From the IMG/VR virus record IMGVR_UViG_3300047509_000054, positions 1 to 61,416 of that record: 61,416 nucleotides of DNA; one strand, 5' to 3'. This DNA comes from a virus (lineage: Duplodnaviria; Caudoviricetes). The position numbers and the translations under genes are program-made. Below the pieces are notes generated by a model. That model had not been told where the DNA came from, did no database searches, and saw only the letters and a list, made by a program, of their open reading frames with translations. This document shows, in pieces, positions 1-55,689 of this stretch. Numbering within the stretch: position 1 is the stretch's first letter; every line of letters starts with the position of its first letter.

Positions 1-127
1 GAGACCGGGAAGGAACATTTGTTACCATCAGACGCCGATCGCTATCCAAGTATAGTTGATTGCGCCGGTGGTTGCCGTCTGACCAAACGTAAAAGAGGAA
101 AGTGACGCAGGGACGGCGGTTGGCGGC
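1..127. repeat. Terminal direct repeat, copy 1 (circular assembly overlap)
   Basis: 1-127 is identical to 61290-61416; 127 is a common assembler k-mer length. Confidence 0.95.
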
Positions 128-1044
128 ACTTGGCAGTTGGATTGAGGGGTGATGACAATCGAAAAAAAAGCACTGACAAATGGCGTGGTCAGCCCGACCG
201 CACCAGTGACGGGTCCAGATTCCGTCACAGAACCCCATTGAATCGTCAATCCGCCTGGAAACTTGTAGAAGCCATTCGCAGTGAGCGTCTTGTTGCCGGC
301 GAATCCCGCCGCCGTGAGCGCCTGTGTTGCGTCGGTACCAACAAGCGTCGTAGCGGCCGAAGCGGCCGGAACGGTTACCGTTCCGGTGCTGGTGATCGGG
401 CCTCCCGTCGCGAGGCCTGCCGTTGCCACGCTGGTAACGGTGCCAACAGTCGCGCCAGCCGACGATCCAGAGAACAGGGAGAAGCCACCAAGACCGCCAT
501 TGAGCGCGCTGTTGTAGGCGATGACGTAGAATTGCCCGACGACGAAAGCGCCCGAACCCGCCTGTGTGTTGTTCGCCAAGTAGACGCCGCGAATCGGGAA
601 GCCGACAACTTGCGCCGTGACCGCGCCGGTCGACGTGGCGGCGGCGACGAACGAAAACTCCTGATAGTTGGAGTAGGCAAAAGGCTGCTGAATGCCGTTG
701 ATCGGCGTGAGGATCAGCAGATTGGTTCCGGTCTCCGTGCAGGAGATGACGTTCGACGACGAGCCATCGACGGAGATGCGCTCCCAATATCCGGAGCCGG
801 CGCCGACAGGTACGATAATGCTTGTGCCGTCGTCGGTGCCGATGACGTTGGGCACCCATGAGAACGAGCCCTGACCGCCGTCGCCTATGGCACTGATTCC
901 ACGGACATAGACTTGCACGCCCGGTGCGCCGATGAAGCCGCGCAACTGCCCAACCGTGTCACAGCCTTGCAGATAAGTATTGAGTTGGTCTGCAGAGACG
1001 CTCCCCTGACCCTGAATCGAAACGCTCAACTGCGGCGCGGTCAC
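28..1044 (-). CDS. Tail fibre / receptor-binding protein
   Basis: G/T/S-rich; C-terminal 'NGFYKFPGGLTIQWG...WIAIG' is typical of phage fibre tip domains; N-terminus paralogous to 1041-2036. Confidence 0.75.
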   Translation of the reverse strand: MTAPQLSVSIQGQGSVSADQLNTYLQGCDTVGQLRGFIGAPGVQVYVRGISAIGDGGQGSFSWVPNVIGTDDGTSIIVPVGAGSGYWERISVDGSSSNVISCTETGTNLLILTPINGIQQPFAYSNYQEFSFVAAATSTGAVTAQVVGFPIRGVYLANNTQAGSGAFVVGQFYVIAYNSALNGGLGGFSLFSGSSAGATVGTVTSVATAGLATGGPITSTGTVTVPAASAATTLVGTDATQALTAAGFAGNKTLTANGFYKFPGGLTIQWGSVTESGPVTGAVGLTTPFVSAFFSIVITPQSNCQVPPTAVPASLSSFTFGQTATTGAINYTWIAIGV

Positions 1045-2036
1045 GGGATCGTCTCGGTAATGGTAATGCTAGACGCCAGCGTTCCGCCGAACAATCCGCC
1101 TCCAATGTTGCCGTTAAACACCAGAGTGCCGGCCGCCGATGGCCCAGCCCGCACCTTAAAGGTCGTCGCAATCCCCGTATTGACGGCCATCTTGTGACGA
1201 AAATTCACGATGTTCATGCCGCCAGATGTAGCCTGAAATACCGCGCCAACCGCGAGTGCATTCGCGCCGGCATCCTGAAAGAGAGCAACGATCATATTGA
1301 GATTTGCAGCATTGACCACGCCGATGAACGTCACATCGATGAGCCATGTGTTGAGGGGGTTAATGGCGGTCAGCGTGAGCGACATGTACTGGTCACCCTC
1401 GTTCTGCTGCGGGATAGTATTGTCGAATGGGATAATGTTCGGCCCAGAGCCCACCGAACCCGTCTCGAAATTGACGATTTGCTGGACAGACCCGGAAAAC
1501 GCCGTGCGCAACTGATCGATGGTCGTTTTCTTCGCCGCGAACGCCGCCGCCGAATCGCCGATGACGACGAGGTCAGCACTTGTCGGGGATGCCTTCGCGA
1601 CGAGGTCGGATGGTGCCAACGCGATTGTCTGGGTGAACGTGCCGCTGTTGCCGATCAAGACGCCGCCGTTGAGCGCGTCTACAACGGGTCTGACGGCGGT
1701 CAATCTTTGCCAGATGCCGGTTGGTGCGCCGCCCGCTGGAACGATGACGTTGAGCCCGTCGTCCGGGCCGGTGCCGGTTGCGATCCAGGCGAAGTTGCCT
1801 TGCCCGCCGTCGTTGATGACGCTAGTGCCTCGGACAAAAACTTGGACGCCGGGCGCGCCGACGAAGGCTCGGAGTTGCGCGATGTTGTCGCATGTCTGTT
1901 GGTAGGTGTTCAAATTGTCGGCAGAGACGGAGCCCTGGCCGTTTAGTTGGACGGCTAATTGTGGTGCGGTCATAACTGGATTAGCCCCGCCGAAGGCGGA
2001 AACACCGAAGGCGAACTGCCCGAAGGCCCCGCTCAT
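1041..2036 (-). CDS. Tail fibre-like protein, paralog of 28-1044
   Basis: Shares the ~90-aa 'MTAPQL..GQGSVSAD.LNTY...DGGQG.F.W' module; different C-terminus. Confidence 0.7.
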   Translation of the reverse strand: MSGAFGQFAFGVSAFGGANPVMTAPQLAVQLNGQGSVSADNLNTYQQTCDNIAQLRAFVGAPGVQVFVRGTSVINDGGQGNFAWIATGTGPDDGLNVIVPAGGAPTGIWQRLTAVRPVVDALNGGVLIGNSGTFTQTIALAPSDLVAKASPTSADLVVIGDSAAAFAAKKTTIDQLRTAFSGSVQQIVNFETGSVGSGPNIIPFDNTIPQQNEGDQYMSLTLTAINPLNTWLIDVTFIGVVNAANLNMIVALFQDAGANALAVGAVFQATSGGMNIVNFRHKMAVNTGIATTFKVRAGPSAAGTLVFNGNIGGGLFGGTLASSITITETIP

Positions 2037-2233
2037 TCACGCCACTTCCCTGTCGCTGTCGAAGTACGGCTTGGTGCGGCTGATCCCGATGATCTGCGTC
2101 GGCTGGATGAGGTGGCTCGGAAGTTCGACCTGGACCGTCTCGCCCCGGCAGGTGAACCGCGACGCGATGAAAACCCGGTCGTCGCGCACGAAGGGACGGC
2201 TGGTCTCCACCTCCCCGTCAGGCATCAACCGCC

Positions 2234-2617
2234 TCACGCGGCGCGCCCCCGATCCGGCCACGCGAGCCAGATCAGCGGGATCACCGTGAGGCAGCAGTAC
2301 GCGGCGAGGACCGCGAGGCCGATGTTCGACTGCCACGACATCGCGAGGAGAGCCAGCACGAACGCGCCGATCAGCGCGAGCAGCAGTTGCAGCCGAACGG
2401 CGAGAATCTTGGCGATTGCGGTGAAGACGGCGATGAGCGCGGAGGGCGTCGGCGGCGGCCTACTCGTCGTCTGAGGCTCCGCCGAAGGTTGGCTCGTCGG
2501 CTCGATGGAGGATGGCGGGGGTTCCGCCACGACCGTTCTCGGCCTTGGCTCGGCGGGTCTGACGGATAGTCTCTCCACGGAGCTGGTGGACAAATCCGTC
2601 AAGGGCATTTTCGTCAT
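2234..2617 (-). CDS. Small membrane protein (start uncertain)
   Basis: Hydrophobic C-terminal helices; overlaps the 3' end of 2460-2849 in another frame. Confidence 0.5.
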   Translation of the reverse strand: MTKMPLTDLSTSSVERLSVRPAEPRPRTVVAEPPPSSIEPTSQPSAEPQTTSRPPPTPSALIAVFTAIAKILAVRLQLLLALIGAFVLALLAMSWQSNIGLAVLAAYCCLTVIPLIWLAWPDRGRAA

Positions 2618-2849
2618 CCTCCGGGAAGAGGCGATGTTTGAGCGCGACGAAGTTGTTGATCGAACTCAGCAGTTTCAGTTGGTCGCTCATGGCGATCGGC
2701 GGCGCGTCGTCTACGGGAGTCCCGGAACCCTCAGACGTGCCGATGTCATTGGTTATAGACGGAAACGCTTTGTCCAACAAGGTTCCGTAGGCTCGCTCGA
2801 CCTTGTCCATGAGGGTCGGCGGCGGCGGGGTGCGCGAGCGTCCGGCCAT
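2460..2849 (-). CDS. Hypothetical protein, late operon
   Basis: ORF co-oriented with virion genes; GAGG-like motif upstream on the minus strand not clearly resolved. Confidence 0.55.
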   Translation of the reverse strand: MAGRSRTPPPPTLMDKVERAYGTLLDKAFPSITNDIGTSEGSGTPVDDAPPIAMSDQLKLLSSINNFVALKHRLFPEDDENALDGFVHQLRGETIRQTRRAKAENGRGGTPAILHRADEPTFGGASDDE

Positions 2850-2868
2850 CAGAGGACTATTTTATGGG

Positions 2869-2897
2869 TTGGCATTACTTCATGCGCTCGCTAAAGT
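2869..2897 (+). promoter_or_regulatory. sigma70-like promoter of element copy 1
   Basis: TTGGCA-N17-TAAAGT directly before the first hairpin. Confidence 0.6.
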
Positions 2898-2900
2898 GGC

Positions 2901-3298
2901 GAGGCCGGCGAGGGCGTCAACCCTCCTCCGGCCTCTGATCAAGTCCGGTAGCCGCCGGGACGAGATCAACTTCTCCCCAATCTAGGGTCGCAGGCGGCTT
3001 AGGTCAATCCGAGAGGGTTGGCACCGCAGGCATTCGGGATCTATCGACGGTCGGTCTGCGGCGTAAATGGTGGGAGACGGGCCTGGCAAACCACCATCGC
3101 CGGCCGAACGGTCCGGGCGAGCCAGACGGGGAAACCTACGAAGTGCGGGCCGGTGGTCTAAGCGTGGGCTCGTCTCAAGGGGCAAGTCTTAAAGTCGCTT
3201 GGAGGCCATAGGCGCCACTCGAACGCGCGCAACAAAATTGCGTGCCGACGGGTAGGCGGCCTGTGGCCATCACGCGGGTCTGAACTCAGGGGCAAGTC
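2901..3298 (+). ncRNA. Putative ~400-nt structured RNA, copy 1 (family unknown)
   Basis: Homologous to 10117-10510 (-) with compensatory changes and frame-breaking indels; multiple stems, GAGA and GAAA tetraloops. Confidence 0.75.
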
Positions 3299-3319
3299 GT
3301 TAGAAAGAGAAGATTAGAG

Positions 3320-3562
3320 ATGAGCAGACGACATCGAAGCATCAGAATCGTCGGTGGCCTGAACTGTCCTCATTGTGGAAAAACGATGCAACGCTTCGAG
3401 CACAGCAAATCGTGGGTTCCTCGTCCTGGTCGATATTATTTTCGCTGGTGGGACCGTTGCTTTCGGTGCCAGCATCTCCAGCACTATGAGAGCGCGAAAG
3501 TTTCTGTGCTGACGGAAGCCGATATGGACATACTTGACTTCGCACGCTCGCAAGGGTTGTAG
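3320..3562 (+). CDS. Small zinc-finger-like protein (cargo of copy 1)
   Basis: CPHC...CFRC; purine-rich RBS; antisense to the surrounding late operon. Confidence 0.7.
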   Translation: MSRRHRSIRIVGGLNCPHCGKTMQRFEHSKSWVPRPGRYYFRWWDRCFRCQHLQHYESAKVSVLTEADMDILDFARSQGL

Positions 3563-3563
3563 G

Positions 3564-4949
3564 TTACTCAGCCGCAATCTCCGCGCGCCCGACCGCCTCG
3601 TCCACGCTCGCCTCGAATGTGTGCCCGCCAGTGTGCTTCAGCTTGACGGACGGCAGCATGAATATCTCGCCGCCTAGCGCCTTCCATCGGTGGCAGAACG
3701 CGAAGTCCTCGGCCTTGCGTCGCTGATTGACGATCATCGGGGCGAACACGTCGTGCTCGGTCTGTCCCGTTTCCGACATGAACACGAGGTCTGGATATCC
3801 CGCCGCCATCCGCTCGGCGCAGGATCGAGAAATCATCGCGAAGGCCATGCCGATCTCGGAGACCAGCCAAAGCTCCGTTTCGCCTTCCACGATGACGACG
3901 TGCGAGCGTTCGAGGTTGAAGGCGAAGTTGATGGGGTACTGCTTCTTAGGGCCGGCTGCGGCGACGAAGTCTCGTTTGAGCATGGCGAGGCGGATCACGT
4001 CGATGGCTGACCAGCCCATGTCGGCGTCGATCGCCATCATGTGGGTGTGCGGCGATCTGAGGAACGCGCCGAGGAGTTTCGCCCGCGCGAGGCTGATATC
4101 GGCGCAGTAGGGCAACTCGCCGAAATCGACCCGCCCGCCGCACTGCCTGATCATGTTCGTGGTGTTCTCGAACGAGCGCATGAAGTGGCGGTCGTAGGTG
4201 CCGTCTCCGGTCGGCGTCGCGATGTAGATCGACATGCCGTCGAGGCGGGGCCGGATGACGTTGCCGCCGTGGCGCTCGGCGAGGTCCATGATGGCGTCGC
4301 AGGCGACCCGCTTCTCCTCGGCCATCCATCCCCGGAACCGCTTCTCGTCGCCGTCCCAGAAGCGCCCGATATGCGCGGTCGTGGCGTCCGACTTGCCCTG
4401 CCGGAAGGCGTGCATGTGGGCGACGGTCACGTCCATCCGAACCGTCCAGCAGTTCGTCGCGTTGCCGAGTTGCTCCCAGATGTCATCGACGAAGAAGTGC
4501 TTGAAGCCGGGCGGGTAGATGCCGCCGAGGGTTCTGAGGAGGTCGCCGGACCAGACGATTGCGCCGTGGATGCGCTTGGGGGCCTGCCAGTCGTCGTTTG
4601 AGGAGACGACGTTCCATCCGGCGACGCTCTCGATGAGTTTGGTGTCCCAATTCGGCGTCTTCGGCACATGGTCGTCGCAGAGGCCGCCGATCCAGTCGAG
4701 GTTCTGGCATGCCGCCTGCCATGCCCCGTTCATCGCCTCGACGACGCTGCCGGCCTCGATGGTGAGGAATGACCAGTTGTCCGGCATCTCGTCGGCAAGG
4801 GCGAGATAGTGCGCCTTTTCCTCTTCCCACTCGTCGAAGTTGACGACGACCCGCCCCGGCGTGCTCATGCCTGTCGCCTTCGCGGCGGCGAAGAAGCGCT
4901 TGAGCGAGGGGATGCGGCGCTTCGAGGGGAGGAGCCAAAGTCCGTTCAT
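3564..4949 (-). CDS. Two-domain GT-A-fold glycosyltransferase
   Basis: N-domain 'GGLCDDHVP...HFFVDDIW...HMH'; C-domain 'HMMAIDADMGW...AEDFAFC.RW...H.G' typical of phage GT2-like enzymes. Confidence 0.75.
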   Translation of the reverse strand: MNGLWLLPSKRRIPSLKRFFAAAKATGMSTPGRVVVNFDEWEEEKAHYLALADEMPDNWSFLTIEAGSVVEAMNGAWQAACQNLDWIGGLCDDHVPKTPNWDTKLIESVAGWNVVSSNDDWQAPKRIHGAIVWSGDLLRTLGGIYPPGFKHFFVDDIWEQLGNATNCWTVRMDVTVAHMHAFRQGKSDATTAHIGRFWDGDEKRFRGWMAEEKRVACDAIMDLAERHGGNVIRPRLDGMSIYIATPTGDGTYDRHFMRSFENTTNMIRQCGGRVDFGELPYCADISLARAKLLGAFLRSPHTHMMAIDADMGWSAIDVIRLAMLKRDFVAAAGPKKQYPINFAFNLERSHVVIVEGETELWLVSEIGMAFAMISRSCAERMAAGYPDLVFMSETGQTEHDVFAPMIVNQRRKAEDFAFCHRWKALGGEIFMLPSVKLKHTGGHTFEASVDEAVGRAEIAAE

Positions 4950-7900
4950 CAGAATGGAGATCCCTCATTGATTCCGAGTTGGCTGGCGGCGGTCGGCGGG
5001 CCGATCAGAGGTGGCGGCGCGGGCGATGGCTGCGAGGCGATCTTGCGCGTGCCGGTTGTCTGTCGCGGTCGCGGACGGTGCGGTTCCTGTGACGATCCAC
5101 CGCTGCCGACGCTCGCCCCAATGCCCGCGCCTGTGACACCGCCCACGTCAGACATCAGTTTGCGAAATGCCTCTCTAGCGGCATCGCGCTGCGGGCCGGT
5201 GCCGTTGAGGCCAGTGATGAGCCACCGCTGAAATGCAGGATTGGCTTGGAGGTTGGTGATGACCTTGTAGTATCCGCCGAGGATGGCACGCCCGGCGACA
5301 TCGCTTCCCGGCACCGCCTTGGCTACCTGCCCGACGAATTTTCCGGTGATTGAGGACCACGGGTGCTCGACCTTGGCGACCGCCGCGATGGATTTGGCGG
5401 TGTTCGCCCCGGCTCGCGTTCCCATCAGGAAATCCATTTCCTTCGCGAGCGTCTGCATCGCATCGAGTGAGACGCCGGGCATCATCATCTGCTGGATCTC
5501 GGGCGAGACGGATGCGAGTCGCCTGCCGGGGTCGAGCGTGCCTTCGAGTATGCGCTGCGTCCACAACTGTCGGAGGAGTTTAAACTCGTTTGAGTTCTCG
5601 CCGAATTTCTTAGCGGCGGCGATGATTAGATCCTCGCTGCCGAGAATGTGGTTTGCCGCTTCGTCTGCGCCGGTGGTGGGTTTGTAGAGGAACGCGAGAG
5701 GATCGGCGCGCCGCTCGGCGGCGAGTTTTCCCTTGGCGATTTTCCCCTCGTGATCGATCGCCTTCATTTCCCGCGCGAACGTTCCGAGTGGATCTTGCTT
5801 GGCGACGAGTTTGATGGCGTCAGCGGCTTCATTTGCCCGCTGGATCACCGTCGTCAGCGTGTCGCCGGGCCTCACGGTCACCGGCAACCTTCCGCCGAGC
5901 ATTTCGATGTTCTGCGCCTGCCGCAGCAACTTGTCGGCGGTCTCCTTGCCGTGAACCGATTCGAGCATCCCGCTGCGCGTGCGGTCGAGCACCTGCCGGG
6001 AGAAGGTTCGTCCGTCAATCTCGCCTGGGATCAGCGTCTTTGCGGCATCAAGCATCTCCTGCACGTCCGCTGCCTTGACGCCGGCCCAGAGGTTGGGACC
6101 GACGAGATCGCGCACCTTGTTGGTGAGTTCCGTGCGGCCTTCCTTGACGACGGTATTGTAGAGGATGTTGGCGTCGGCAGGCATGCCAGATTCGAGGCCG
6201 TTGACGACCGCCTGGATGTTCTTGTCCTTGAACGCCCTGATATTCTCCTTGTAGTAGGCATCTGCCTCGTCGAGCATTTCCGCCGCCGCTTTCAATTCAG
6301 GAACGGCCCCTGCGTCGTGGAGAACGCCGTCGACCTTGCCGGCGAAATGCTTGTAGACGCCATCGCGGACATCGGGCGTGAGGTCGTGGTAATCGACGTT
6401 GCTGCGGAAATCGGTGCGCAGTCGCCGCAGTTGTCCGAAGGTCGGATTTTCGGGCGGTCGAATGACCTTACCCTCTGCGTCCACCTCTCCCGCGAGATCA
6501 CGAAGTTTCTTGACGATGTTCGGATACTTGTCCTGGAACGTCTTGGGCAACTGGTCGAGGAACGTCTGTGCATACTCGACAAGATCGCCGGTGTTGGGCA
6601 GATGTGTTCCGGCCATCTCGTCGGCGCGGTCGTACATGCGCGTGGCATTGACACCGATGGCGCGGCGGATCGACATCAACTTGTTGCCGACCATCTCCCA
6701 GAGATCGCCGCCGCCCTGTCCCGCTTTCGTCGCCTTCATCGCGGCATCGACATCGGCCTTAATATCGGTGAATCCCGCGTCGATCGCCGCCTGTGCCGTC
6801 TTGCGATTTTCCGCTTCGGCGGTTTTGAGCGCGGCAAGATTTGCCTCGTGCTCGGCAACATTTGCCGCACCGCCTTGGCTTGCCGTCAACTTCGCACGGT
6901 CGAGCGCGTTGCGCAGAGCGGCGTCCTTTTCAGCAACCTCGCTCGCGATTTTCGCCTTCACCGCTTCTCCCGCCTTCAACGTCGAAGGAGCGGCGGACGG
7001 CTCGACCACGCTGCCCTCGTGCGTCATGCCTTGCGTCGCTAGGAGTTTCTTCGCCTCGTCCTCGTAATAGGCGGTCGCCGACTTGACGAGCGGCTTTTGC
7101 GTGCGGAAGGCCGGATCAAACACTTCGACGATGTTGCGCAGATGTGGCGATTCCTCGGCCCATGTCGGCGGCGTCAGCACGCCTTTGTCGGCGAGGCTGG
7201 ACGACAATCGAAGTTTGTCGGGGTCGGTGCCAAGGAAGGCGTTGAATCGCCCTGGGAGCGCCGCTTTGCCCTGCACGACAAGATCCTTCGCGAGACGTGC
7301 GCCGCCGACGACAAGACGCCCCGCACCCTCGCCGACCGCGCCGCCTGCTGCGGCTGTTCCGAGGGTTCCCGCCTCCTCGCCGATCGAGCGGTCATAGACG
7401 CCCGTCAACCCGAGAATGATGTCGTTGAAACCCTGCCCGATTGCCGCCCCGCCGCCAGCGCCAGCGATGCCGCCGACGATCGTTCCTCCACCGGGGACGA
7501 GAGATCCAACCGCGCCGCCGCCGACCGCGCCAGCGACTGCGCCAGCGACCGGAACGGCTTCTGACGCCACGAACGCCGCGCCGCGCTTGGCGATATTGCC
7601 ATGTCCCGGCTTGAGCCGCCTGCCGTCGCCAGCATCGACGTAGAATCCGCCAAATTCGTCCTGCTTGACGGCATCATCGCCGTAGGATCGCACCAGAACG
7701 TTCCGGCGCTCCTTGTCGTTGACGGCCATGTCGTAAAGCGTCTGAGCCGTGAGGTCGATGCCATCGAAAATCGGCTTCTGGCGCTTTTTCCCTGAAGGAT
7801 CGACATAGGTCTCCCCCTCTGGTACAGCCGCGTAACTCGCAGCGTCCGAAACGGCGTGGGGTTTCTGCCGTGTCTTGCCTTCTGGATCGACGTATTTGAA

Positions 7901-8035
7901 TCCCGGTTCGAGCGCTGCGTATTCCTCCGCCGTCTTCACCTCGCGCGTCGTTTTGAGAGGCTTGTCCGGGTCGAGCGCGGGTGTCCCCGTCGCCGGCAGC
8001 TTCGGCAAATCGGGACGGTCGATATCGGTCGCCAT
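4949..8035 (-). CDS. Large internal virion / DNA ejection protein (putative)
   Basis: 1028 aa, helical, Gly/Ala-rich hydrophobic patch, podovirus-like position. Confidence 0.6.
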   Translation of the reverse strand: MATDIDRPDLPKLPATGTPALDPDKPLKTTREVKTAEEYAALEPGFKYVDPEGKTRQKPHAVSDAASYAAVPEGETYVDPSGKKRQKPIFDGIDLTAQTLYDMAVNDKERRNVLVRSYGDDAVKQDEFGGFYVDAGDGRRLKPGHGNIAKRGAAFVASEAVPVAGAVAGAVGGGAVGSLVPGGGTIVGGIAGAGGGAAIGQGFNDIILGLTGVYDRSIGEEAGTLGTAAAGGAVGEGAGRLVVGGARLAKDLVVQGKAALPGRFNAFLGTDPDKLRLSSSLADKGVLTPPTWAEESPHLRNIVEVFDPAFRTQKPLVKSATAYYEDEAKKLLATQGMTHEGSVVEPSAAPSTLKAGEAVKAKIASEVAEKDAALRNALDRAKLTASQGGAANVAEHEANLAALKTAEAENRKTAQAAIDAGFTDIKADVDAAMKATKAGQGGGDLWEMVGNKLMSIRRAIGVNATRMYDRADEMAGTHLPNTGDLVEYAQTFLDQLPKTFQDKYPNIVKKLRDLAGEVDAEGKVIRPPENPTFGQLRRLRTDFRSNVDYHDLTPDVRDGVYKHFAGKVDGVLHDAGAVPELKAAAEMLDEADAYYKENIRAFKDKNIQAVVNGLESGMPADANILYNTVVKEGRTELTNKVRDLVGPNLWAGVKAADVQEMLDAAKTLIPGEIDGRTFSRQVLDRTRSGMLESVHGKETADKLLRQAQNIEMLGGRLPVTVRPGDTLTTVIQRANEAADAIKLVAKQDPLGTFAREMKAIDHEGKIAKGKLAAERRADPLAFLYKPTTGADEAANHILGSEDLIIAAAKKFGENSNEFKLLRQLWTQRILEGTLDPGRRLASVSPEIQQMMMPGVSLDAMQTLAKEMDFLMGTRAGANTAKSIAAVAKVEHPWSSITGKFVGQVAKAVPGSDVAGRAILGGYYKVITNLQANPAFQRWLITGLNGTGPQRDAAREAFRKLMSDVGGVTGAGIGASVGSGGSSQEPHRPRPRQTTGTRKIASQPSPAPPPLIGPPTAASQLGINEGSPF

Positions 8036-9642
8036 TACTGGACCTCGGGATCGCTAGACCACGGCGTTGCGCTTGGCGCAGAACGCGCACCGGCACCGCC
8101 AGCCGCGCTTGGCGACCCTTCGCCGGCATCGCGCTCGCCGCGCGGACGCCATTGCCCTTTCAACTGCAACAGCGTGTCTTGCTGCATTTTCTCGTACAGT
8201 TTTCGCACCTCTTCGAGAGAGCGCATGGTATTAGCCGTGGTGTCGCCCATGTTGAGCCCGCCGATGATCTCGGTGATCTTCTCCGCGTCGGCATGGAGCG
8301 GCCGGGACGACGCATCGGTCAGCAGGCGCGACGCCATCAACTGCAGATAGTCGATATTGCGCATGAACTGCACGCGCTCGGTCGTGTCGCTGCCGAGGAC
8401 GTTGCCGATGCGTTCGCCCAGTCTGGTGACCTTGCCGCCGACGCCGGCAGCGCCGACCAGATTATCGAGCACGGCCGTCGTCTCGCCGATCTTGTCGAGG
8501 CTGTCGTCGAACTGATCGACGCGCGTCTGCAACTTCTCCTGCGCATTGCCGGTGAGGAGACTCTTGCCGTATGCGTTGGCAATCGCCCGGTCCTTCTCGG
8601 TAGCCGTCGCCTTGCGCCCTGTCTTGGCCTCGATCTCGGCGATTTCCTGTTGAATGGCGTCGGCGCGTATCGCCGCGATCGAACCGCTTGACGCACCCGA
8701 TCGCGCCGTCGCTTTGACCGCGCCGGTCGGCGTGTAGGGCTGTCCGGCCAGATCCGTCGTCGCGCCGGTCTTGTCGTTCATCCGATACTGCTTCGCTGGC
8801 ACCGTCCGGCCATCGGCCCCAACGCGCTCCGGATCGGTGAAAATCTCCCACTTGCCGGTGTTTCCAGTGGTGCTCTCCGGCGTCCCCGACAGCACGCGAT
8901 TCATCTTGTTTATCCGCTCCTCCGGCGTCATCGGATTGGGCGTTTTCGCGCGGTCGGCCTGCTCCTTGTCGATCGCCAAGATACCAGCCTGTTTGGTGTG
9001 CAATTCTAGGAGTTTCAGACTGATCTCGGGCAACTTGCCGGCTTGAATCCGCATGTCGTTCTCGTACTTCGCGATGCCGTCAAGCCCCTGCGTCACGAGG
9101 ATTTGGTTCGCGGTGTGATTCTGGAAAACCGCCGTGAGATTCCTGACCTCGGCGTAGGTTCCGGCCCGATCGGTGTCGATCTTGGAGAGCGCCGCGCGAT
9201 AGGCGTCCAACTCGAAATGCGCGAGTTTCACCGCGTTTTCGGTGTTGATCTTCCACTCGTCGAACGCGGTCTGCGCGGCAGCGGCGTCCTTGCGCTTGTA
9301 GGCGTCGAGCACGCCAGCCGCCGCGTTGAGCGAGGCTGTGAGAGGCCGCCGCGTCAGCAAGCCTCCGAGCGACGCAAGCACGCCCGCCGACGAGCCGAAC
9401 GCCTCAAGCGGGCTGGTCTGAGGCGGCGCGGTCCACTTTTCGAGCTTGGGCGGCGTCAGGACGTTGGGATCGAGCTTCGCTTCCTCGGCGTCGATCTTCG
9501 CGGCCTTCTCCTTCGCGCGCTCGGTCGCGGCCTTCATCTCCACGTCCGACTCTTGGATGTACTTCTCGTTGGCGAGGAGGTTCGAGCGCAGCGCCGCGCC
9601 GATGCCGCCGCGTTTGGGATCGATCGCGTCGAGGAAACTCAT
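8035..9642 (-). CDS. Internal virion / ejection protein (putative)
   Basis: 535 aa, helical, Ala/Lys-rich, translationally coupled to 4949-8035. Confidence 0.55.
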   Translation of the reverse strand: MSFLDAIDPKRGGIGAALRSNLLANEKYIQESDVEMKAATERAKEKAAKIDAEEAKLDPNVLTPPKLEKWTAPPQTSPLEAFGSSAGVLASLGGLLTRRPLTASLNAAAGVLDAYKRKDAAAAQTAFDEWKINTENAVKLAHFELDAYRAALSKIDTDRAGTYAEVRNLTAVFQNHTANQILVTQGLDGIAKYENDMRIQAGKLPEISLKLLELHTKQAGILAIDKEQADRAKTPNPMTPEERINKMNRVLSGTPESTTGNTGKWEIFTDPERVGADGRTVPAKQYRMNDKTGATTDLAGQPYTPTGAVKATARSGASSGSIAAIRADAIQQEIAEIEAKTGRKATATEKDRAIANAYGKSLLTGNAQEKLQTRVDQFDDSLDKIGETTAVLDNLVGAAGVGGKVTRLGERIGNVLGSDTTERVQFMRNIDYLQLMASRLLTDASSRPLHADAEKITEIIGGLNMGDTTANTMRSLEEVRKLYEKMQQDTLLQLKGQWRPRGERDAGEGSPSAAGGAGARSAPSATPWSSDPEVQ

Positions 9643-10073
9643 TTGTCAAACTCCGACCTACGATAGCTTACACTAGTTATTGGGCCGGGTTCCAAAACCG
9701 CGATTTTAGGTTCGTACAGCGTCTTCAGCGCTAAATCATAATCGCGCTCGCTCTTCCGAAGAAGACTGTCCCGAGTTGTGGATTCTCCGCCACCCGATCG
9801 TCTCATCGACGCGGTTCTATAAAGTGTCATTGCATAGATAAACGATATTCCACCAGTAATAAATGGCGAGAAACCCAGATGTAAAGGCGACATTATCGTT
9901 GCTATAAACAACAGACAACTGGAATATATGCAGAATAGCCAGAAAATACCCACTGATTCATCACAGTCTTTTTCCCACTCATGCAAAATTGAAAACGTAA
10001 AAGTGGAAAGAAGACCAAACTCGGATATCAGTGTCATAACATATGCTGTCACATCACCTATATTGTCTCTCAT
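9639..10073 (-). CDS. Low-GC membrane protein (cargo of copy 2)
   Basis: About 3 hydrophobic segments; visibly AT-richer than flanks; AAGGA RBS; ATGA overlap with the next gene. Confidence 0.65.
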   Translation of the reverse strand: MRDNIGDVTAYVMTLISEFGLLSTFTFSILHEWEKDCDESVGIFWLFCIYSSCLLFIATIMSPLHLGFSPFITGGISFIYAMTLYRTASMRRSGGGESTTRDSLLRKSERDYDLALKTLYEPKIAVLEPGPITSVSYRRSEFDK

Positions 10074-10116
10074 CTAACTAGTCCTTGTGTTGTCGTGTTA
10101 ACATCTAAACCTACCA

Positions 10117-10510
10117 GACTGTCCCTGAGTTCAGACCCTCGTGATGGCCATAGGTCGCCTACCCGTCGGCGCGCAATTCGGCGCGCGTTCGAGTGGCGCC
10201 TATGGCCTCCAAGCGACTTTAAGACTGTCCCTTGAGACGAGCCCACGCTTAGACCACCGGCTCGCATTTCGTAGGTTTCCCCGTCTGACGCGCCCGAGCC
10301 GTTCGGCCGGCGATGGTGGTTTGCCAGGCCCATCTCCCACCATTGCGCCGCAGACCGACCGTCGATAAATCCCGAATGCCTGCGACGGTGCCAATCCCGG
10401 AGGATTGACCGATGCAGCCTGTGTACCTAAATTCGGGGGAAACGCTCCTGTCCCGGCTGCATTCCGGACTTGAGCGGGGCGACGGGAGTTGATAGCTCCT
10501 GTCGCCCGCC
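10117..10510 (-). ncRNA. Putative ~400-nt structured RNA, copy 2 (family unknown)
   Basis: Inverted homolog of 2901-3298; same stems; C(UCCG)G loop replaces the GAGA loop. Confidence 0.75.
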
Positions 10511-10513
10511 TTC

Positions 10514-10543
10514 ATTCTAGAGCCATTTTCGTCGTCGATGCAA
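10514..10543 (-). promoter_or_regulatory. sigma70-like promoter of element copy 2
   Basis: TTGCAT-N18-TAGAAT on the minus strand directly before the first hairpin. Confidence 0.65.
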
Positions 10544-10554
10544 GCGCGCCGCAT

Positions 10555-11871
10555 TCAAGCCGCCGATACCTTGATCGTCTGTCCCCCGCCGCCCGCGAGG
10601 CCCGCCGCGAACTTCGCCAGCGCGTCCGAGAGCGAAGCGTCCTGCGCGAGCGAGTCCTTCAGGATAGACTCGTAGAGCGCTGTCGAGAGGCCGGTTTCCT
10701 GTATGCCCGTCGAGAGGAGGGTGCTCGCGAGGCTAGCGCCCTGCGACTGCTCGTTGATGCCCTGCGCGAGAAGGCTCTGCGCCAGCGTGCCGCGCTGCGC
10801 CGCGATCTGGTTGTCGACGTTGGCGAGATCCTGCTGCTCCGCCGACGATCCCGACATGCCGCGCGAGGCGTACTGGCTGCGGATGGTCGCCTTGGCGGAT
10901 GCGGCGGCTGTCGTGAGTTGCTGTTCGAGGCCGGGCGGCAGTTTCCCGGCTGCGGCGTCGTTGGCGATGGTGGTGCCCTGCGTCGTGAGGTTCCCAGCCG
11001 TGCTGCCGACCGTTGCCGCGTTCGGGCCGATGAGCGAGTTTCCTTGGCTGGCGAGTTTGTCCGCTGCGGAACTGAGATTGCCGGCGGCGGCGGAAGCGCC
11101 GGGGATGGTCGGCTGGTTGAGCGCCTCGAAGCCGAGAATGCCGGCGCCGAGAACAGCGCCCGGATTGTTGACGAGGCCGCCGCCGATCGTGCCGGCCGGG
11201 TCGTTGAGGAATTTGGTGAAACTCGAATCGGGCGACGGTTTGATGCCGGATGCTCCGAAGGCATTTTCTCCGGCAGCGATAGCGGATGGTCGCGCTCCTC
11301 CTGCGGTGTCGGCGTTGAAAGCATCGGTCGCCGTTTTGTCGAGTCCCGCTGGTGCCGTCGCATCAGGGCCGGAGAAGGGCACCGAGGCGGGCGCGGCGAC
11401 CGGGCCGGCAGCGGAAGCGATGCCGACAGGGGCTGCACCGGGAGGAGCCACGGCAGGCGCTACGGGGGCGATGGCTTGCCCCACCGGCGAGGCAAAGGCG
11501 GAAGCGGGGTCAATGGCAGGGGGCGCTATTGCACCGGCGGCGCCACCAGCCTGCGGAGCGACGCCCAACGCAGTCGCGATATCCTGCCCGCCGATCGAAG
11601 CCTCGGTGAGCGCGGCGGGGATAGCAGTGCTGGCCGCATCCGTCGCAACTGGTGCGACATCCGCCGCACCGCTGGCACCCGCTGCGGCAGCATCGGCAGC
11701 CGTCGATGACAGTTGGCCCGCCGTACCGGCGGCATCCGCCGCAGCGGGCGCCGTTCCACCGAAGAAGTCGCTGACTGCGGTTCCAGCCTGATCGAGCACC
11801 GCGCCGAGGTCGCAGACGATCGAGTGCGGGATGTCGCAGAGCCAGATCTCAGCGTTGAAGACGTGCGTCAT
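10555..11871 (-). CDS. Ala/Gly-rich internal virion / pilot-like protein
   Basis: Low-complexity N-half; 'ASRGMSGSSAEQ' type motif; ATG overlaps the upstream stop. Confidence 0.6.
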   Translation of the reverse strand: MTHVFNAEIWLCDIPHSIVCDLGAVLDQAGTAVSDFFGGTAPAAADAAGTAGQLSSTAADAAAAGASGAADVAPVATDAASTAIPAALTEASIGGQDIATALGVAPQAGGAAGAIAPPAIDPASAFASPVGQAIAPVAPAVAPPGAAPVGIASAAGPVAAPASVPFSGPDATAPAGLDKTATDAFNADTAGGARPSAIAAGENAFGASGIKPSPDSSFTKFLNDPAGTIGGGLVNNPGAVLGAGILGFEALNQPTIPGASAAAGNLSSAADKLASQGNSLIGPNAATVGSTAGNLTTQGTTIANDAAAGKLPPGLEQQLTTAAASAKATIRSQYASRGMSGSSAEQQDLANVDNQIAAQRGTLAQSLLAQGINEQSQGASLASTLLSTGIQETGLSTALYESILKDSLAQDASLSDALAKFAAGLAGGGGQTIKVSAA

Positions 11872-14048: not shown

Positions 14049-16334
14049 CTAGCCGAAGACGCTGCCCTGATGCTGGTACGCGAGGGCGAGGTTCTCGATG
14101 GTGAAGTCGGGCGAGGTCGAAACTACAGTGAATCCAAGGTTAAAGCCAACGATGTCGCCGGAACCCTGGGCGAAGACGGCGACCGAGGGCAGCCCGTCGC
14201 CTGCCGGATTTGGCGCCGGGAACGTCATCGTGTTGGGCATCGCGTAGGATTGATTGCTGTCCGTATCGACCGTGCCGGTGAGGGTCACGCCGGCCTGTGC
14301 CGCCGAGCGGTCCTGCCCTTGCGCGTAGAGGGCGAGCGCCGTCTTTTGGAGGAAGATCTCGCTCGCCCCGTAGTGCTTGGATACGAGGCGCTTCTGCAAC
14401 GTCGCGGAGGGCACGGAAAGGAGCGGTCTGAGTGTCGTGCCGTCCGTTCCCCATGAGGTGATGATCGTGCCGACTTCTTGCGTCGAGATGTAGATCAGCG
14501 CCGACGACTGGCTGACGATGAACCACTCCTTCTCGTCCCAGCCGAGCATGACGTTGCGCTGCGCCTTGGTGACGGGATCGAGAATGGTCATCAGCAGCAG
14601 ATAGACGCGGATCGAGAAGATCTCGGCAACTGCGGCGCTCGGCAGTAGCGCGCCCGGTGTCGGCGGGAAGATCGCGTTGTTGAAAATCTCGTCGATCTTG
14701 CTTGAGATCTTGGTCACCGCGCCGCCGTAGAGACCGAAGACGCCGAGCGGGTTGGCAAAGAGGACGGTGCGCCCGTAATCCTGCAACGTGTCGCGCCATG
14801 ACGTTCCGATCTGCGGGTCGGTGTTCTGGTAGTTGAACGTCGTCGCCGGTGGACTGCCCGCAGTCTGGACGTTCGAGATGACCGAGACCGACGAATCGCC
14901 GAACGGATAGAGGAAACCGTTCGCCTGCCGCATCGCGCTGTAATTGACCCGCAAGAATCGATCAGTCGAAGTGAAGATGAGGCCACCGTCCGAGGTCGCG
15001 AAATCGGTCAGAGAGCCCGGCGCCGAGACGAGGAAGACGCCGCCGTTGTTCTGCTTGCCGGACTGGTTCGGGAATGGCAACCAAACGCGGCTTGAGAACG
15101 TTTCGATGGCGGCGCCCGAGACGCCGAAGGGCATTACCGTCGCTGTGGCGGCGGCTGCGCTGTTGACTCCGGATTGGATAGTGACGGCGGGCGCGCTGGT
15201 GTATCCCGTGCCAGCAACGCCCGGCGTCACTGCGGAGATTGCTCCCGTCGTCAGCGTCGTGGTTGCGGTTGCGCCCGAACCGCCTCCGCCGGAGACGACG
15301 AGGGTCGGCGCAACGCCGAATCCCGTGCCGCCGTTGACGATGCTGTACGAGGCAACCGTCGTCGGCGCGAGAAAGGCCGCCGCCAAAGCACCAGAACCTC
15401 CGCCGGAAGGGAACGTGACAGCCGGCGCGTCGGTGTAGCCGGCGCCGCTTGCGCTCAAGAAGATGCTGACGACCGCGCCTGTCGCATCGACGGTATATGT
15501 TCCGGTCGCCCCGCCGGCACCTGAAAACGCGAGCGCATAAGTACCCGCCGCGTAGCCGCTGCCGCCCGCCAGAAGCGATACATGATCCACCTTGGCCGCC
15601 GTGAGCACGGCCGTGATGATGGCGCCCGTGTCGCTGCCTCCACCGGAGAAGGCGAATTGCACGACATCGCCGGGATGGTAGCCGGCGCCTTGGTTTGAGA
15701 TGATGACCGCGACGACGGTGCCGTTCGCGATGACGGCGGTGGCGACGACGCCTGACCCGCTCCCTCCGAACGCGGTGACGCCCGGCGCGGAGGAATACCC
15801 GGACCCGCCCGAGAGAAGGGTCACCACCGGCCCTATCGAACCCGCCGTGTAGAGGATCGCGCCGTCCCAGATCCAGTACGAGTTCGGCGTGATGTTCGAG
15901 GCGATGAGGAGGTACTGAGAGCCTGACTGCACGCAGGCTGGCAGGATGCCGCCTTTATAGAATGTTCCCGGAACCGACGAAATGACCGTCACCGCCAGCG
16001 TCGCGATGTTGACCTGGACGGCGGTGCCATCGGACAGGAACACTGCTTCGTAGATCGTCGCGCCGATGTTGAAGCCAAAGTGCGAGACGATCGTGAGGGG
16101 CGGCGTCGGGTTGTAGATCGCGGTGCCGATGTCCCAGCAGGAGCGGAGTTTCCCCGGCCCGGTGCGGATGAGGTTTTCGAGGACGAAGAAGTCGGTATCT
16201 CCCATCCCCGAGCGCGATGCCTGCTGATCCATCCCGCCGAACGGCATGGGCGACCAGACGCGGAACCCCTCGGGGATGCCGAGTTGCGATTGCAGCTTGG
16301 AGGAAATCTCGGCAGTGTTCGGGGAGAGCGCCAT
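14049..16334 (-). CDS. Tail nozzle / stabilisation protein with inserted GSGY repeats
   Basis: 761 aa, beta-rich, follows the adaptor; central repeats of 'V.l..GG.GY..AP.V'. Confidence 0.65.
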   Translation of the reverse strand: MALSPNTAEISSKLQSQLGIPEGFRVWSPMPFGGMDQQASRSGMGDTDFFVLENLIRTGPGKLRSCWDIGTAIYNPTPPLTIVSHFGFNIGATIYEAVFLSDGTAVQVNIATLAVTVISSVPGTFYKGGILPACVQSGSQYLLIASNITPNSYWIWDGAILYTAGSIGPVVTLLSGGSGYSSAPGVTAFGGSGSGVVATAVIANGTVVAVIISNQGAGYHPGDVVQFAFSGGGSDTGAIITAVLTAAKVDHVSLLAGGSGYAAGTYALAFSGAGGATGTYTVDATGAVVSIFLSASGAGYTDAPAVTFPSGGGSGALAAAFLAPTTVASYSIVNGGTGFGVAPTLVVSGGGGSGATATTTLTTGAISAVTPGVAGTGYTSAPAVTIQSGVNSAAAATATVMPFGVSGAAIETFSSRVWLPFPNQSGKQNNGGVFLVSAPGSLTDFATSDGGLIFTSTDRFLRVNYSAMRQANGFLYPFGDSSVSVISNVQTAGSPPATTFNYQNTDPQIGTSWRDTLQDYGRTVLFANPLGVFGLYGGAVTKISSKIDEIFNNAIFPPTPGALLPSAAVAEIFSIRVYLLLMTILDPVTKAQRNVMLGWDEKEWFIVSQSSALIYISTQEVGTIITSWGTDGTTLRPLLSVPSATLQKRLVSKHYGASEIFLQKTALALYAQGQDRSAAQAGVTLTGTVDTDSNQSYAMPNTMTFPAPNPAGDGLPSVAVFAQGSGDIVGFNLGFTVVSTSPDFTIENLALAYQHQGSVFG

Positions 16335-23625: not shown

Positions 23626-24639
23626 CTATCGTTGTAGAAGTCGGCCTCCTTCCTTTCTAACGCGATCTCGCCAATACGCCATCAGGTCCGCCATCGTCTG
23701 CGCGAACGGGATCTCGGGTTGCCACCCTGTGTGTGCGCGAAACTTTCTTGTGTCGGGGACCTGGAGGTCGGCGTCGATCGGGCGCAGGCGCTCGGGATCG
23801 ACCTCGATGGTGATCCTCACATCAGCCGTGGACATCCGAATCAGGTGGTGAGCGATGTCGCCCACGGTGCAGGTGTGCGTGCCGCCGATGTTATAGTAGG
23901 ATCCGGGAATCGGATTGACCGTCACGGCGATGTGGTAGGCTTTGGCGACATCGCGAACGTCGCAGAGGGTTCGGAGAGAGTCTAGGTTTCCGACCTTCAC
24001 GACAGGCGGAAGAAGTCCGGCTTCTATCATGCAAATTTGCTTGCTGAACGAACTTTCCATGAACACATCGCCCCGCCTTGGCCCGGTCGTCGTGAACATC
24101 CGCGTCGTCTGCGTGTTGATGCCGTAAGCCTCGGCGTAGAAGCGCCCGACGAGATCGGTGCCGGCCTTGCTGATCGCGTAGGGGCTCGCGGGATGGAACA
24201 GCGTCTCCTCGCCGATCGGCACCTTGTCCTTCGGCACGCGACCGAAGACCTCCGACGAGGAACAAACGTGGACGATCGCCTGTGGACAGAATTGCCGCAC
24301 GGCGTCGAGCAGCCGAGTCGTTCCCAAGATGTTCGTGTCGAGGGTGTCGAGCGGCGAGTCGAACGAGGTGCGCGGGAAACTCTGCGCGGCGAGGTGGAAG
24401 ACGTAATCCGGCGCCGCCTCCCTGACCACGCGCTGAATGCTGATTGTGTCCCTCAAATCGCCGCAGAGCAGATGCACCCGGTCCTTCGCGTTGATGCGCG
24501 GGATCAGCGTTTCGAGGTTGTCGAGCGGCGAGCGCCACCGCGTCATTCCGTACACGTCCCAATCGGTGTGCTCGACCAGGTACTCGGCGAGGTGGCTGCC
24601 GACGAATCCGGTGAGGCCCGTAATCAGCGCGCGGGTCAA
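23626..24639 (-). CDS. GDP-mannose 4,6-dehydratase / RMD-like extended SDR
   Basis: 'ALITGLTGFVGSHL', 'HLAAQS', 'SSSEVFG', 'SPYAISK', 'GNLDSLR'; TTG start overlaps the upstream stop. Confidence 0.85.
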   Translation of the reverse strand: MTRALITGLTGFVGSHLAEYLVEHTDWDVYGMTRWRSPLDNLETLIPRINAKDRVHLLCGDLRDTISIQRVVREAAPDYVFHLAAQSFPRTSFDSPLDTLDTNILGTTRLLDAVRQFCPQAIVHVCSSSEVFGRVPKDKVPIGEETLFHPASPYAISKAGTDLVGRFYAEAYGINTQTTRMFTTTGPRRGDVFMESSFSKQICMIEAGLLPPVVKVGNLDSLRTLCDVRDVAKAYHIAVTVNPIPGSYYNIGGTHTCTVGDIAHHLIRMSTADVRITIEVDPERLRPIDADLQVPDTRKFRAHTGWQPEIPFAQTMADLMAYWRDRVRKEGGRLLQR

Positions 24640-25757
24640 AGGACTAGCCGCATGACGGCGACGGCGCGTTCGATGAGGTCCGGAGCGGGCCAAGGCGGGT
24701 TGCCCAAGAACATGCCGGTGTCGTGAATGCGGTCAGCGTTGGGTGTGGACTGGTTCTGCCAGCGGGCCGAGTAGGGGTGGCGCAGGAAGCTACCGCCAGC
24801 GGGAAGGCGACAATCTATGCTCGCTGCCCGCAACGCCGTCACCAGCCGCAACCTCGTCGCGTTGTCGGTCACGCTGAACTGAAACCCAAACGGCGACATG
24901 AAACCGTTCTCTCTAACTGGCGTGATATCCAGATCCTTGGTGAGTCCGATGAAGTGCTGATAATTGTGACGACGCTCTGCGATGAAGCCGGGGAGTTTGC
25001 GAAGCTGCACGCGGGCGACTGCCGAGTTGACCTCGCTCGGACGGCAGTTGAACCCAAAAATCTCGAAGCGGTATTCGTCGTCGAACGTCTCCGCCTTCTG
25101 CACGTCGCGCGTCCAGCCGTGCGAGCGCAGCATCCTCAAGAGCCGATAGCACTCGGCGTCGTTTGTGCCAACGAGTCCCAGTTCTATCGCGCTGAGTTGA
25201 TGGCTGTAGAATCCGCTGAACGTGCTCATCAGTCCGAAGGTGCCGCAGAGCTTGCCGTCAACCGATGCGCCGAGGCTTTCACACGCATCCTCGATCAGGT
25301 ACGCCTTCGTGACGGCCGCCGCCTTTTCCCATCCAGCGTAATAGGCCGGATTGCCGAGAACAGGGCAGGTGACGATGAGGCGCGGGACCGGCGTCGAGGT
25401 GACGATCAGCGGCACCGCGTTCCAAGTCGCGTCGGTATCAGCCACGCGAAGGTCCAACCCACTCTGCACCAAAGGCGCAAACGTGGTCGCCCAAGCAATC
25501 GCCGGCACCACAGCGCGATCACCGACCCGCAGCGGATTGTCCTTGAGATGAAAGAGCGCGGCGGTGGCGATCTGATTGGCGGCCGACCCGGAGTTTGTCG
25601 CGACGGCGTACTTGCGCCCGATATACGCGGCGAACTCCGATTCCAGAGCCGCCGTCTCCTCGCCCATCGTGACCCATTCGGAGTCGAGGACGCGGTTGAT
25701 CGCCTCCCGCTCTAGCTTGTCCCAATGTGAATGCCCGGTAGGAAACTCATATGCCAT
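24636..25757 (-). CDS. ColD-like PLP-dependent 4-keto-6-deoxysugar 3-dehydratase (DegT/DnrJ family)
   Basis: 'NSGSAAN', 'EDACESLGA', 'FYSHQLSAIELG' with His at the Schiff-base Lys position, 'LRSHGWTRD'. Confidence 0.85.
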   Translation of the reverse strand: MAYEFPTGHSHWDKLEREAINRVLDSEWVTMGEETAALESEFAAYIGRKYAVATNSGSAANQIATAALFHLKDNPLRVGDRAVVPAIAWATTFAPLVQSGLDLRVADTDATWNAVPLIVTSTPVPRLIVTCPVLGNPAYYAGWEKAAAVTKAYLIEDACESLGASVDGKLCGTFGLMSTFSGFYSHQLSAIELGLVGTNDAECYRLLRMLRSHGWTRDVQKAETFDDEYRFEIFGFNCRPSEVNSAVARVQLRKLPGFIAERRHNYQHFIGLTKDLDITPVRENGFMSPFGFQFSVTDNATRLRLVTALRAASIDCRLPAGGSFLRHPYSARWQNQSTPNADRIHDTGMFLGNPPWPAPDLIERAVAVMRLVL

Positions 25758-25774
25758 TTCGCTAATCCTCTCTG

Positions 25775-25927
25775 AGTTGCCGGCTCGCACCCCTTAGCGT
25801 TAGCCGCGCCGACTGTCAGAAGATCGGCGGGAGATTCACGGTTTGCCCCTTGCATAATGCGGGGGAGGGCTGCTTGGTTCGCTGGGACGGCCGGCGCGTC
25901 CCCCAGGACGAATCTCCTATGGCAACT
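25775..25927 (-). other. Multi-stem intergenic element in the sugar operon
   Basis: AGTTGCC/GGCAACT closing stem, GGAGATTC/GAATCTCC and two further hairpins. Confidence 0.45.
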
Positions 25928-25928
25928 G

Positions 25929-26456: not shown

Positions 26457-26629
26457 TCGTCGGTCGACATGTTGTTGGCAAATTGCCATCCATACTCGGA
26501 AATCGCCTCTTCGATCATGTCCCTAATGATCGCCATCTTGGTCTCGTTCGGCATGCCGTGCGTTGCCCATACTCGCGGATCGGCACACAACTCTTCGATC
26601 ACCTTGTCGGCGTATTGTCCTGCGGTCAT
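26453..26629 (-). CDS. Hypothetical protein (58 aa)
   Basis: Start and stop overlap both neighbours. Confidence 0.5.
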   Translation of the reverse strand: MTAGQYADKVIEELCADPRVWATHGMPNETKMAIIRDMIEEAISEYGWQFANNMSTDE

Positions 26630-27440: not shown

Positions 27441-27466
27441 TCTTGGAACATCGGAGTTATCATCGT

Positions 27467-28507: not shown

Positions 28508-28518
28508 GCGCTAATCCT

Positions 28519-31496: not shown

Positions 31497-31507
31497 TCAA
31501 GCGCCTT

Positions 31508-55603: not shown

Positions 55604-55689
55604 GATCGCTTCTCCTAAAAGCGGTGGTGGCCAGAGCCGGGAGAGCGCTTCCAACGCCCTCTCGGCTCGTTGTATTTTACACATATTTT

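Follow-up and report, generated by a model that had tools for sequence, protein, structure and literature searches.

The stretch of DNA considered here, called the window below, is a complete virus record of IMG/VR (IMGVR_UViG_3300047509_000054; Duplodnaviria, Caudoviricetes) of 61,416 bp, rated 100% complete and bounded by direct terminal repeats, and the phage genome that it represents comes from a soil metagenome. It carries an element of ~395 nt in exactly two copies, inverted relative to each other, each lying between a promoter-like site and a small open reading frame (ORF). The element probably encodes a large structured RNA, and the two cassettes in which it occurs are composed as follows, with the ORFs referred to as cargos.

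2869-2897, plus strand: sigma-70-like promoter of cassette 1, TTGGCA-17-TAAAGT, a 9/12 match called by the promoter scan
2901-3298, plus strand: copy 1 of the putative RNA element, from within-genome BLAST, folding and comparison of the pair
3320-3562, plus strand: cargo 1, P0001, an 80-aa Zn-ribbon protein, GC 0.523
9639-10073, minus strand: cargo 2, P0002, a 144-aa hydrophobic ORF (ORF144), GC 0.428
9643-10564, no strand assigned: block of 922 bp missing in a related phage, holding promoter, RNA copy 2 and ORF144
10117-10510, minus strand: copy 2 of the putative RNA element, with the architecture of copy 1, a UCCG tetraloop on hairpin H4, and motif M at 10236-10223 and 10129-10117
10514-10543, minus strand: weaker promoter-like site of cassette 2, TTGCAT-18-TAGAAT, 8/12 by our own count

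Homology of the two segments had been proposed in an earlier reading of the bare sequence, hereafter the original prediction, and is borne out by a within-genome BLAST search in which copy 1 as query matched 10120-10473 (-) at 87% identity over query positions 39-394 (E 1.4e-118). A MAFFT alignment that included the flanks gave a mean column identity of 87%, and the sequences ceased to align beyond both ends of the element. The 3' 300 nt of the copies are 94% identical, and the 5' 104 nt agree at 74 of 104 positions, with gaps. The further proposal that the differences between the copies do not keep a reading frame was also upheld: stops occur in all six frames of both copies, 1-nt indels separate the two, and the longest frame of the RNA without a stop (118 aa), used as query in a protein search, returned 13 candidates, none of them at E≤0.01. 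A 41-codon ORF at 3067-3192 (+) of copy 1 retains its start and its frame over ~38 codons in copy 2, and was judged to be non-coding because most of its substitutions are, by our own reading, non-synonymous and it has no ribosome-binding site in front. The RNA parts have a GC of 0.63-0.64 and are not deviant from the genome (0.619), and neither copy contains tandem repeats. A separate contig of depth 3 from the source run (X1) matches copy 2 with four single-base insertions at 10267-10279, and may represent a third variant of the RNA, carried by a different phage of that sample.

The fold proposed for the sense strand of copy 1 is made up of nine helices or hairpins (H1 to H9), two pseudoknots (PK1 and PK2) and a repeated motif.

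2901-2935, plus strand: H1, a 5'-terminal, two-step hairpin
2936-2940/2964-2968, plus strand: H2, proposed, enclosing H3 at 2945-2958
2950-2954/2995-2999, plus strand: PK1, pairing the H3 loop with the stretch just before H4
3003-3022, plus strand: H4, a hairpin with a GAGA loop
3024-3029/3056-3061, plus strand: H5, proposed
3067-3097, plus strand: H6, proposed
3074-3083/3167-3176, plus strand: PK2, pairing the H6 loop with a downstream complement
3109-3115/3146-3152, plus strand: H7, with a GAAA hairpin at 3128-3137
3153-3164/3196-3202 plus 3269-3273, plus strand: H8, proposed
3203-3267, plus strand: H9, the long 3' stem, proposed
3174-3188 and 3285-3298, plus strand: the two occurrences of repeated motif M in copy 1

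Every motif named in the original prediction was found at its place. At the 5' end, H1 of copy 1 is formed by GAGGCCGG/CCGGCCTC (as RNA, GAGGCCGG..CCGGCCUC) at 2901-2908/2928-2935 and has been replaced outright in copy 2 by GGGCGAC/GTCGCCC, with TCAAC ending the loop in both copies as had been noticed. H2 has passed from UGAUC/GAUCA in copy 1 to CGCUC/GAGCG in copy 2 through two double compensatory changes. The covarying pseudoknot PK1 is likewise present; the loop of TCCGG/CCGGGA pairs downstream as AGCCG/CGGCU in copy 1 and as AUGCAG/CUGCAU in copy 2, again with two double compensatory changes. When chimeric helices are built by taking one strand from each copy, pairing would occur at only 2 of 7 positions in H1 and at 3 of 5 in PK1. 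H4 reads GTCAATCC-GAGA-GGGTTGGC in copy 1 and GTCAATCC-TCCG-GGATTGGC in copy 2, which is the predicted exchange of a GNRA for a UNCG tetraloop, with all four loop positions changed.

In the more conserved 3' domain, PK2, as predicted, pairs GAGACGGGCC (3074-3083) with GGCTCGTCTC (3167-3176), with a C-G pair changed to U-G in copy 2; the complement extends over 10-12 nt, and only 4 of 2000 shuffles produced a complement of 12 nt. Between the copies, pairs of the long 3' stem have gone from U-G to U-A and from G-U to G-C, in keeping with the earlier description. Over the 3' 300 nt as a whole, one double change (in H7, C-G to U-A) is accompanied by six single changes, and five of these six proceed via G.U pairs, such that they are neutral only as RNA of the sense strand. 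A curated structure of the 3' domain with 82 pairs has 99.4% of its cells paired over both copies, compared with 32-44% when the partners are slid, and the sole unpaired cell results from a G to A change in a bulge of two Gs, which allows the register to shift. Sixteen of 24 substitutions fall at unpaired positions, including all four bases of the H4 tetraloop. Finally, motif M reads CUCA(A)GGGGCAAGUC at 3174 and 3285 in copy 1, whereas both of its occurrences in copy 2 end in GGGACAGUC, and this amounts to a concerted change. No conserved pairing partner of the motif was found, and its 5 matches elsewhere in the genome compare with 4.47 expected by chance.

Folding of the individual sequences points in the same direction. 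The minimum free energy (MFE) of the sense strand is -192.8 kcal/mol for copy 1 (z -3.38) and -188.4 kcal/mol for copy 2 (z -4.69), and in neither case was any of 100 shuffles as stable. When the copies were folded independently, H1, H2 around H3, and the long 3' stem H9 appeared in both, and H4 was complete in copy 1 only.

Upstream of the element, promoter-like sites stand at the same offset relative to H1 in both copies, as judged from the MAFFT alignment. The site of cassette 1 ends 3 nt before H1, so that the predicted transcription start falls at the base of this hairpin. The proposal that each copy follows a sigma-70-like promoter holds well for copy 1, whose 9/12 site was called, and less well for copy 2, whose weak 8/12 site was not. 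Over 2000-11000, the promoter scan called 4 sites as against 1.6 +/- 1.2 in shuffles. A look for expression data turned up 2 runs, neither of them listed as RNA. Downstream of the element, no terminator-like site occurs between RNA and ORF in either cassette, nor, in the same scan, after either cargo, and terminator-like sites in the region number 7 as against 7.7 in shuffles. The ORF starts 21 nt past copy 1 and 43 nt past copy 2, and at both junctions the start codon lies within ..TTAGA(GA)TGAG... An antisense promoter-like site also lies at the same place in both copies, at 3007-2979 (-) and 10405-10433 (+), with the sequence TTGACC-17-TAGATT or TAAATT (9/12); the one in copy 1 faces a divergent 129-aa ORF at 2460-2849.

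The two cargos are unrelated to each other, an 80-aa Zn-ribbon protein in one cassette and a 144-aa hydrophobic ORF in the other, which agrees with the original prediction, and both are AT-rich, with GC values of 0.523 and 0.428 in a genome of 0.619. The stop codon of P0002 overlaps the ATG of a 535-aa gene (ATGA), and only the 144-aa ORF is private cargo of copy 2, since the 535-, 1028- and 461-aa genes that follow downstream are resident phage genes. P0001 has a confidently predicted fold (pLDDT 92.4) and belongs to an unnamed family of small Zn-ribbon proteins, which counts 334 representative clusters at E≤1e-3, of which 93 reach ≤1e-10. In a family alignment of 30 rows, C16, C47 and C50 are invariant and C19 is present in at least 90%, and the family motif reads WDRC..C.H.QHYE..AKV. 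The names given to family members in the sources are all 'hypothetical protein', and one member comes from Haematobacter. P0001 matched no Pfam family, and its fold had no PDB counterpart at E≤0.001 (best 0.46); homologues were absent from GenBank phages and plasmids, with one weak match in 401 genomes. For both cargos, word-index protein searches returned no homologue, a protein atlas search returned leads only, and comparison with PADLOC, Pfam and NCBIfam gave no family above cut-off and no match to a defence-system model.

Evidence on the mobility of the cassettes is provided by a second soil run, X2, whose contigs carry a related phage. One X2 contig (depth 8.76) covers 9065-9642 with 30 differing letters and then 10565-10692, thereby joining 9642 to 10565 with a side of 128 letters and 13 other letters in between. 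The 922-bp gap opens just before the stop of a 563-aa gene and closes at the ATG of the 535-aa gene, and the related phage otherwise retains the gene order of the window with the repeat absent. Cassette 2 is a moron-like insertion, because what the related phage is without is exactly promoter, RNA and ORF144. A second X2 joint, from 2522 to 3579, would delete cassette 1, and it is weak, with a side of 23 letters only. The earlier suggestion of a moron is thus well founded for cassette 2, but for cassette 1 it depends on this short joint.

Morons are autonomous accessory transcription units inserted between genes, and they were described for lambdoid phages. The cassettes resemble them in several respects: a promoter-led block sits precisely between two genes that lie next to each other in a related phage (for cassette 2), the cargo has a foreign base composition, and the cargos are small, one of them being a predicted membrane protein. 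The RNA part is not deviant in composition, and a promoter-like site was called for copy 1 only. The cassettes differ from morons in that no terminator closes either unit. Moreover, each unit starts with a folded RNA of ~395 nt that is common to two different morons, and such an RNA is not known to be part of the moron concept. Cassette 2 thus behaves like a moron, and what the two cassettes have in common is the RNA.

The element matches no catalogued RNA family, and on this point the original prediction, which had called for a covariance-model scan, is supported. Rfam 15, including its models for RNase P RNA, tmRNA, group I and II introns, ROOL, GOLLD, HEARO, riboswitches and small ribozymes, yielded 0 families at gathering score in the whole window. 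At E≤10, five matches fell within 2600-3600, four of them overlapping copy 1, with 13-17 bits against cut-offs of 44-94, and at permissive thresholds there was no match within copy 2. ARAGORN found 0 tRNA or tmRNA genes in the window. The element family is new to Rfam.

The collections searched yielded no further homologue of the RNA. A core covariance model, R1, recovers the two genomic copies at 194 and 199 bits, the rest of the genome scoring ≤10 bits, but it brought up no convincing homologue in 302 sampled genomes; its 2 + 1 matches (25-29 bits) in 151 + 151 genomes of two phyla were judged to be chance because domains are missing. By blastn, copy 1 had no match among GenBank phages or PLSDB plasmids. 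Exact-pattern scans of IMG/VR (a 30-mer, a 20-mer, a 19-mer, a gapped 5'-island pattern and an H4 hairpin pattern) gave 0 matches each, and a 15-mer was found in at least 118 stretches, with those listed all being chance by nhmmer (best E 1.4). Two 18-mer matches in JGI metagenomes were rejected, both lying within coding sequence. In GTDB genome contigs, pattern scans returned 0 and 4 matches; the four loci were set aside as hairpin-only matches by nhmmer, with no Rfam family at any of them and coding sequence at both of the two that were read, and the four whole genomes behind them were also searched with R1. Two partial phages related through the large terminase (82% and 39% identity; 43% and 27% complete) are both without the element. 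The 563-aa neighbour protein has no relative in IMG/VR, and a tblastn comparison of 157 Zn-ribbon family proteins, whose N-terminal extensions were set against the RNA, gave no match (best E 0.19). Diverged relatives could escape the collection scans, because these rely on exact words. In the portions of the literature covered by a full-text search, no description of such an element was found.

The reading favoured here, tentatively and at somewhat less than an even chance, is that the two segments represent an uncatalogued structured RNA of ~395 nt that serves as the portable 5' leader of accessory-gene (moron) cassettes. It accommodates the position of the promoters, the 5'-terminal hairpin, the missing terminator and the common junction. 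Transcription of each copy would begin at the foot of the 5'-terminal hairpin, driven by a sigma-70-type promoter of its own, and the RNA would fold to a compact body of about a dozen helices and at least two pseudoknots, a structure that compensatory changes support in part. As the sequence shows, no terminator intervenes before the ribosome-binding site of the gene that follows, which is small, AT-rich and foreign, and the cargo is joined at a similar junction in both copies. Promoter and folded leader could in this way supply expression and 5'-end protection to any cargo joined behind them, and would probably also supply a bound factor or signal to it. Transcription itself, the strand used in vivo and any effect on the cargo are matters that we infer. 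A leader that acted as a stabiliser and nothing else would still be a useful natural part, and if the folded module is indeed common to two accessory cassettes as proposed, it would constitute a new portable unit of expression or function for foreign genes.

Several observations weigh against this leader reading. The promoter of copy 2 is weak, copy 1 would transcribe head-on into a resident operon, and no homologue of the RNA was found in the collections searched. The leader-ORF junctions are unstructured (z +1.13 and -0.55), so that they show no obvious switch covering the ribosome-binding site. The antisense strand folds at z -2.29 for copy 1 and at z -6.18 for copy 2, and because of the latter value z-scores alone cannot fix the strand. 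Formal covariation is weak, since there are only two sequences and both are from one genome; the shuffle control, likewise of two sequences only, gave 260/500 and carries no information. The placement of substitutions is significant (P=0.0004) on a structure that was curated with both copies in view, whereas on unbiased single-sequence MFE structures the same test is marginal (P=0.18 and 0.019). In addition, the 94% identity of the 3' part could stem from recent gene conversion of the inverted copies rather than from constraint, and if the similarity were gene conversion of a neutral repeat, it would hold little interest. On balance, that the element is a selected RNA structure appears distinctly probable, with a substantial remainder of doubt.

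The most serious alternative to the leader reading, doubtful as it is, casts the RNA itself as the functional product, one working in trans as a ribozyme, as a scaffold for protein binding or as a decoy for a host system, with the ORFs merely on the same transcript. Nearly all of the 3' 300 nt is retained, long unpaired stretches included, while the H4 tetraloop has changed at all four positions, and this selectivity, like the presence of at least two pseudoknots, speaks for an RNA with a function of its own. The concerted change of motif M at both sites of copy 2 would be expected if the motif had a common partner or binding protein, but no partner was found. The ribosome-binding-site regions are unstructured and seemingly independent of the fold, and the two cargos have nothing to do with each other, which again suits a product in trans; however, neither a 3' end nor a terminator separates RNA and ORF, no ribozyme family of Rfam 15 was matched, and the high identity of the copies may be accounted for by gene conversion.

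A more ambitious proposal, somewhat less probable again, is that the element is the first example of a new class of large phage RNAs with pseudoknots. Such an RNA would be a machine for protein binding or a ribozyme, would form the constant part of a mobile promoter-RNA-cargo cassette, and would itself, rather than the small ORF, be the target of selection. Were the RNA so selected, it might conceivably process or cap its own mRNA, counter a host defence, or aid the spread of the cassette.

A processive antitermination element, in which the nascent RNA binds polymerase so that terminators are read through, is improbable. The model for such a role is provided by the putL and putR sites of phage HK022, promoter-proximal antitermination RNAs of two stem-loops and ~70 nt. 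As in HK022, two copies occur in one phage, each just 3' of a promoter-like site, with structure kept by compensatory changes, and copy 2 heads a gene run of 6.5 kb. However, the element is about six times the length of a put RNA, contains pseudoknots and matches no Rfam model, and copy 1 is unfavourably oriented, facing only the 80-aa ORF and, past it, a convergent operon in which read-through would yield antisense transcripts. Moreover, the region is no richer in terminator-like sites than shuffles are, as given above.

A role at the level of DNA, with long inverted repeats for recombination or for inversion of the 6.8-kb segment, or else with leftovers of a duplication, and in either case with no RNA function, is slightly more improbable still. 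The inverted arms do have stretches that are 93-96% complementary, in the source run unitigs are broken at the repeats, and the antisense strand of copy 2 also folds well. Yet the stem changes that pass through G.U would give A.C mismatches in a DNA cruciform, as they would on the opposite strand, and the 5' 100 nt have diverged with their hairpins and pseudoknot retained. The related phage, furthermore, has the gene order of the window without the repeat, and no strand-changing joint between the copies is listed for X1 or X2. That the segments are decayed remnants of a duplicated protein-coding gene is very improbable indeed, for the retained frame of the 41-codon ORF at 3067 is outweighed by its mostly non-synonymous changes, by the stops and 1-nt indels in both copies, and by the failure of the 118-aa frame to find any protein.

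The original prediction had also raised an RNA antitoxin. The ToxI-like RNAs of type III toxin-antitoxin systems consist of direct repeats in tandem and lie upstream of a gene for an endoribonuclease toxin, whereas neither copy of the element has tandem repeats and the cargos have no family above cut-off in PADLOC, Pfam or NCBIfam.

Few RNAs of bacteria and phages combine this size with several pseudoknots, and most of those known are ribozymes, ribonucleoprotein cores or self-assembling particles. Among large phage-associated RNAs, the Rfam families ROOL and GOLLD (cryo-EM preprint 10.1101/2024.12.08.627333) are ornate and have no known function. The element shares with them a large size, a high degree of structure and carriage by a phage, but it is shorter, matches neither Rfam model, and takes up a 5' leader position before an ORF rather than a place beside tRNAs, of which the genome has 0. 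Similar in position are the candidates of the IMG/VR survey by Fremin et al. 2023 (PMC10690425), which, in the available text of that paper, are structured intergenic phage elements directly upstream of genes, average 67 nt and were required to occur in at least 3 distinct IMG/VR regions. At ~395 nt and found nowhere else in the IMG/VR scans, the element would fall outside the survey's stated thresholds on account of both size and rarity. If the present reading is right, rare large RNAs would sit below the detection limits of clustering-based surveys that need at least 3 loci, to judge from those stated thresholds.

As to the genomic setting, the terminal repeat measures 127 nt (1-127 and 61290-61416). 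The large terminase subunit is encoded at 32662-34545 (-), its closest relative in a GenBank phage being 36% identical. Nearer to the cassettes, 28-1044 (-) encodes a C-terminal gp53-like tail-fibre domain, 3564-4949 (-) two glycosyltransferase-like halves, and 14049-16334 (-) a product with likeness to baseplate or virion proteins, and from the identities of these neighbours both RNA elements can be placed in the tail/tail-fibre end of a long minus-strand gene run.

Further along the same run, at 23626-30173 (-), there is a cluster of enzymes of sugar and cofactor type, comprising a nucleotide-sugar epimerase, an aminotransferase, E1 dehydrogenase and transketolase-like pieces, and a B12-binding radical SAM protein. 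A direct repeat of 141 nt, with copies at 30685-30825 and 31493-31633 that are 90% alike and have 808 nt between them, flanks most of a 291-aa ORF at 30775-31650 that has no Pfam family. The product of 45001-45741 (-) is a DpdA-family protein (E 1e-39), which suggests a 7-deazaguanine modification of the phage DNA. Two free-standing HNH_3 endonuclease genes, at 50978-51472 (+) and 55064-55693 (-), the second with a NUMOD4 motif, are likely to encode homing endonucleases. Finally, the endolysin encoded at 56844-57392 (-) combines GH108 and PG_binding_3 domains, a pairing that is commonest in phages of Gram-negative hosts and that offers a weak lead toward a Gram-negative host for this phage.

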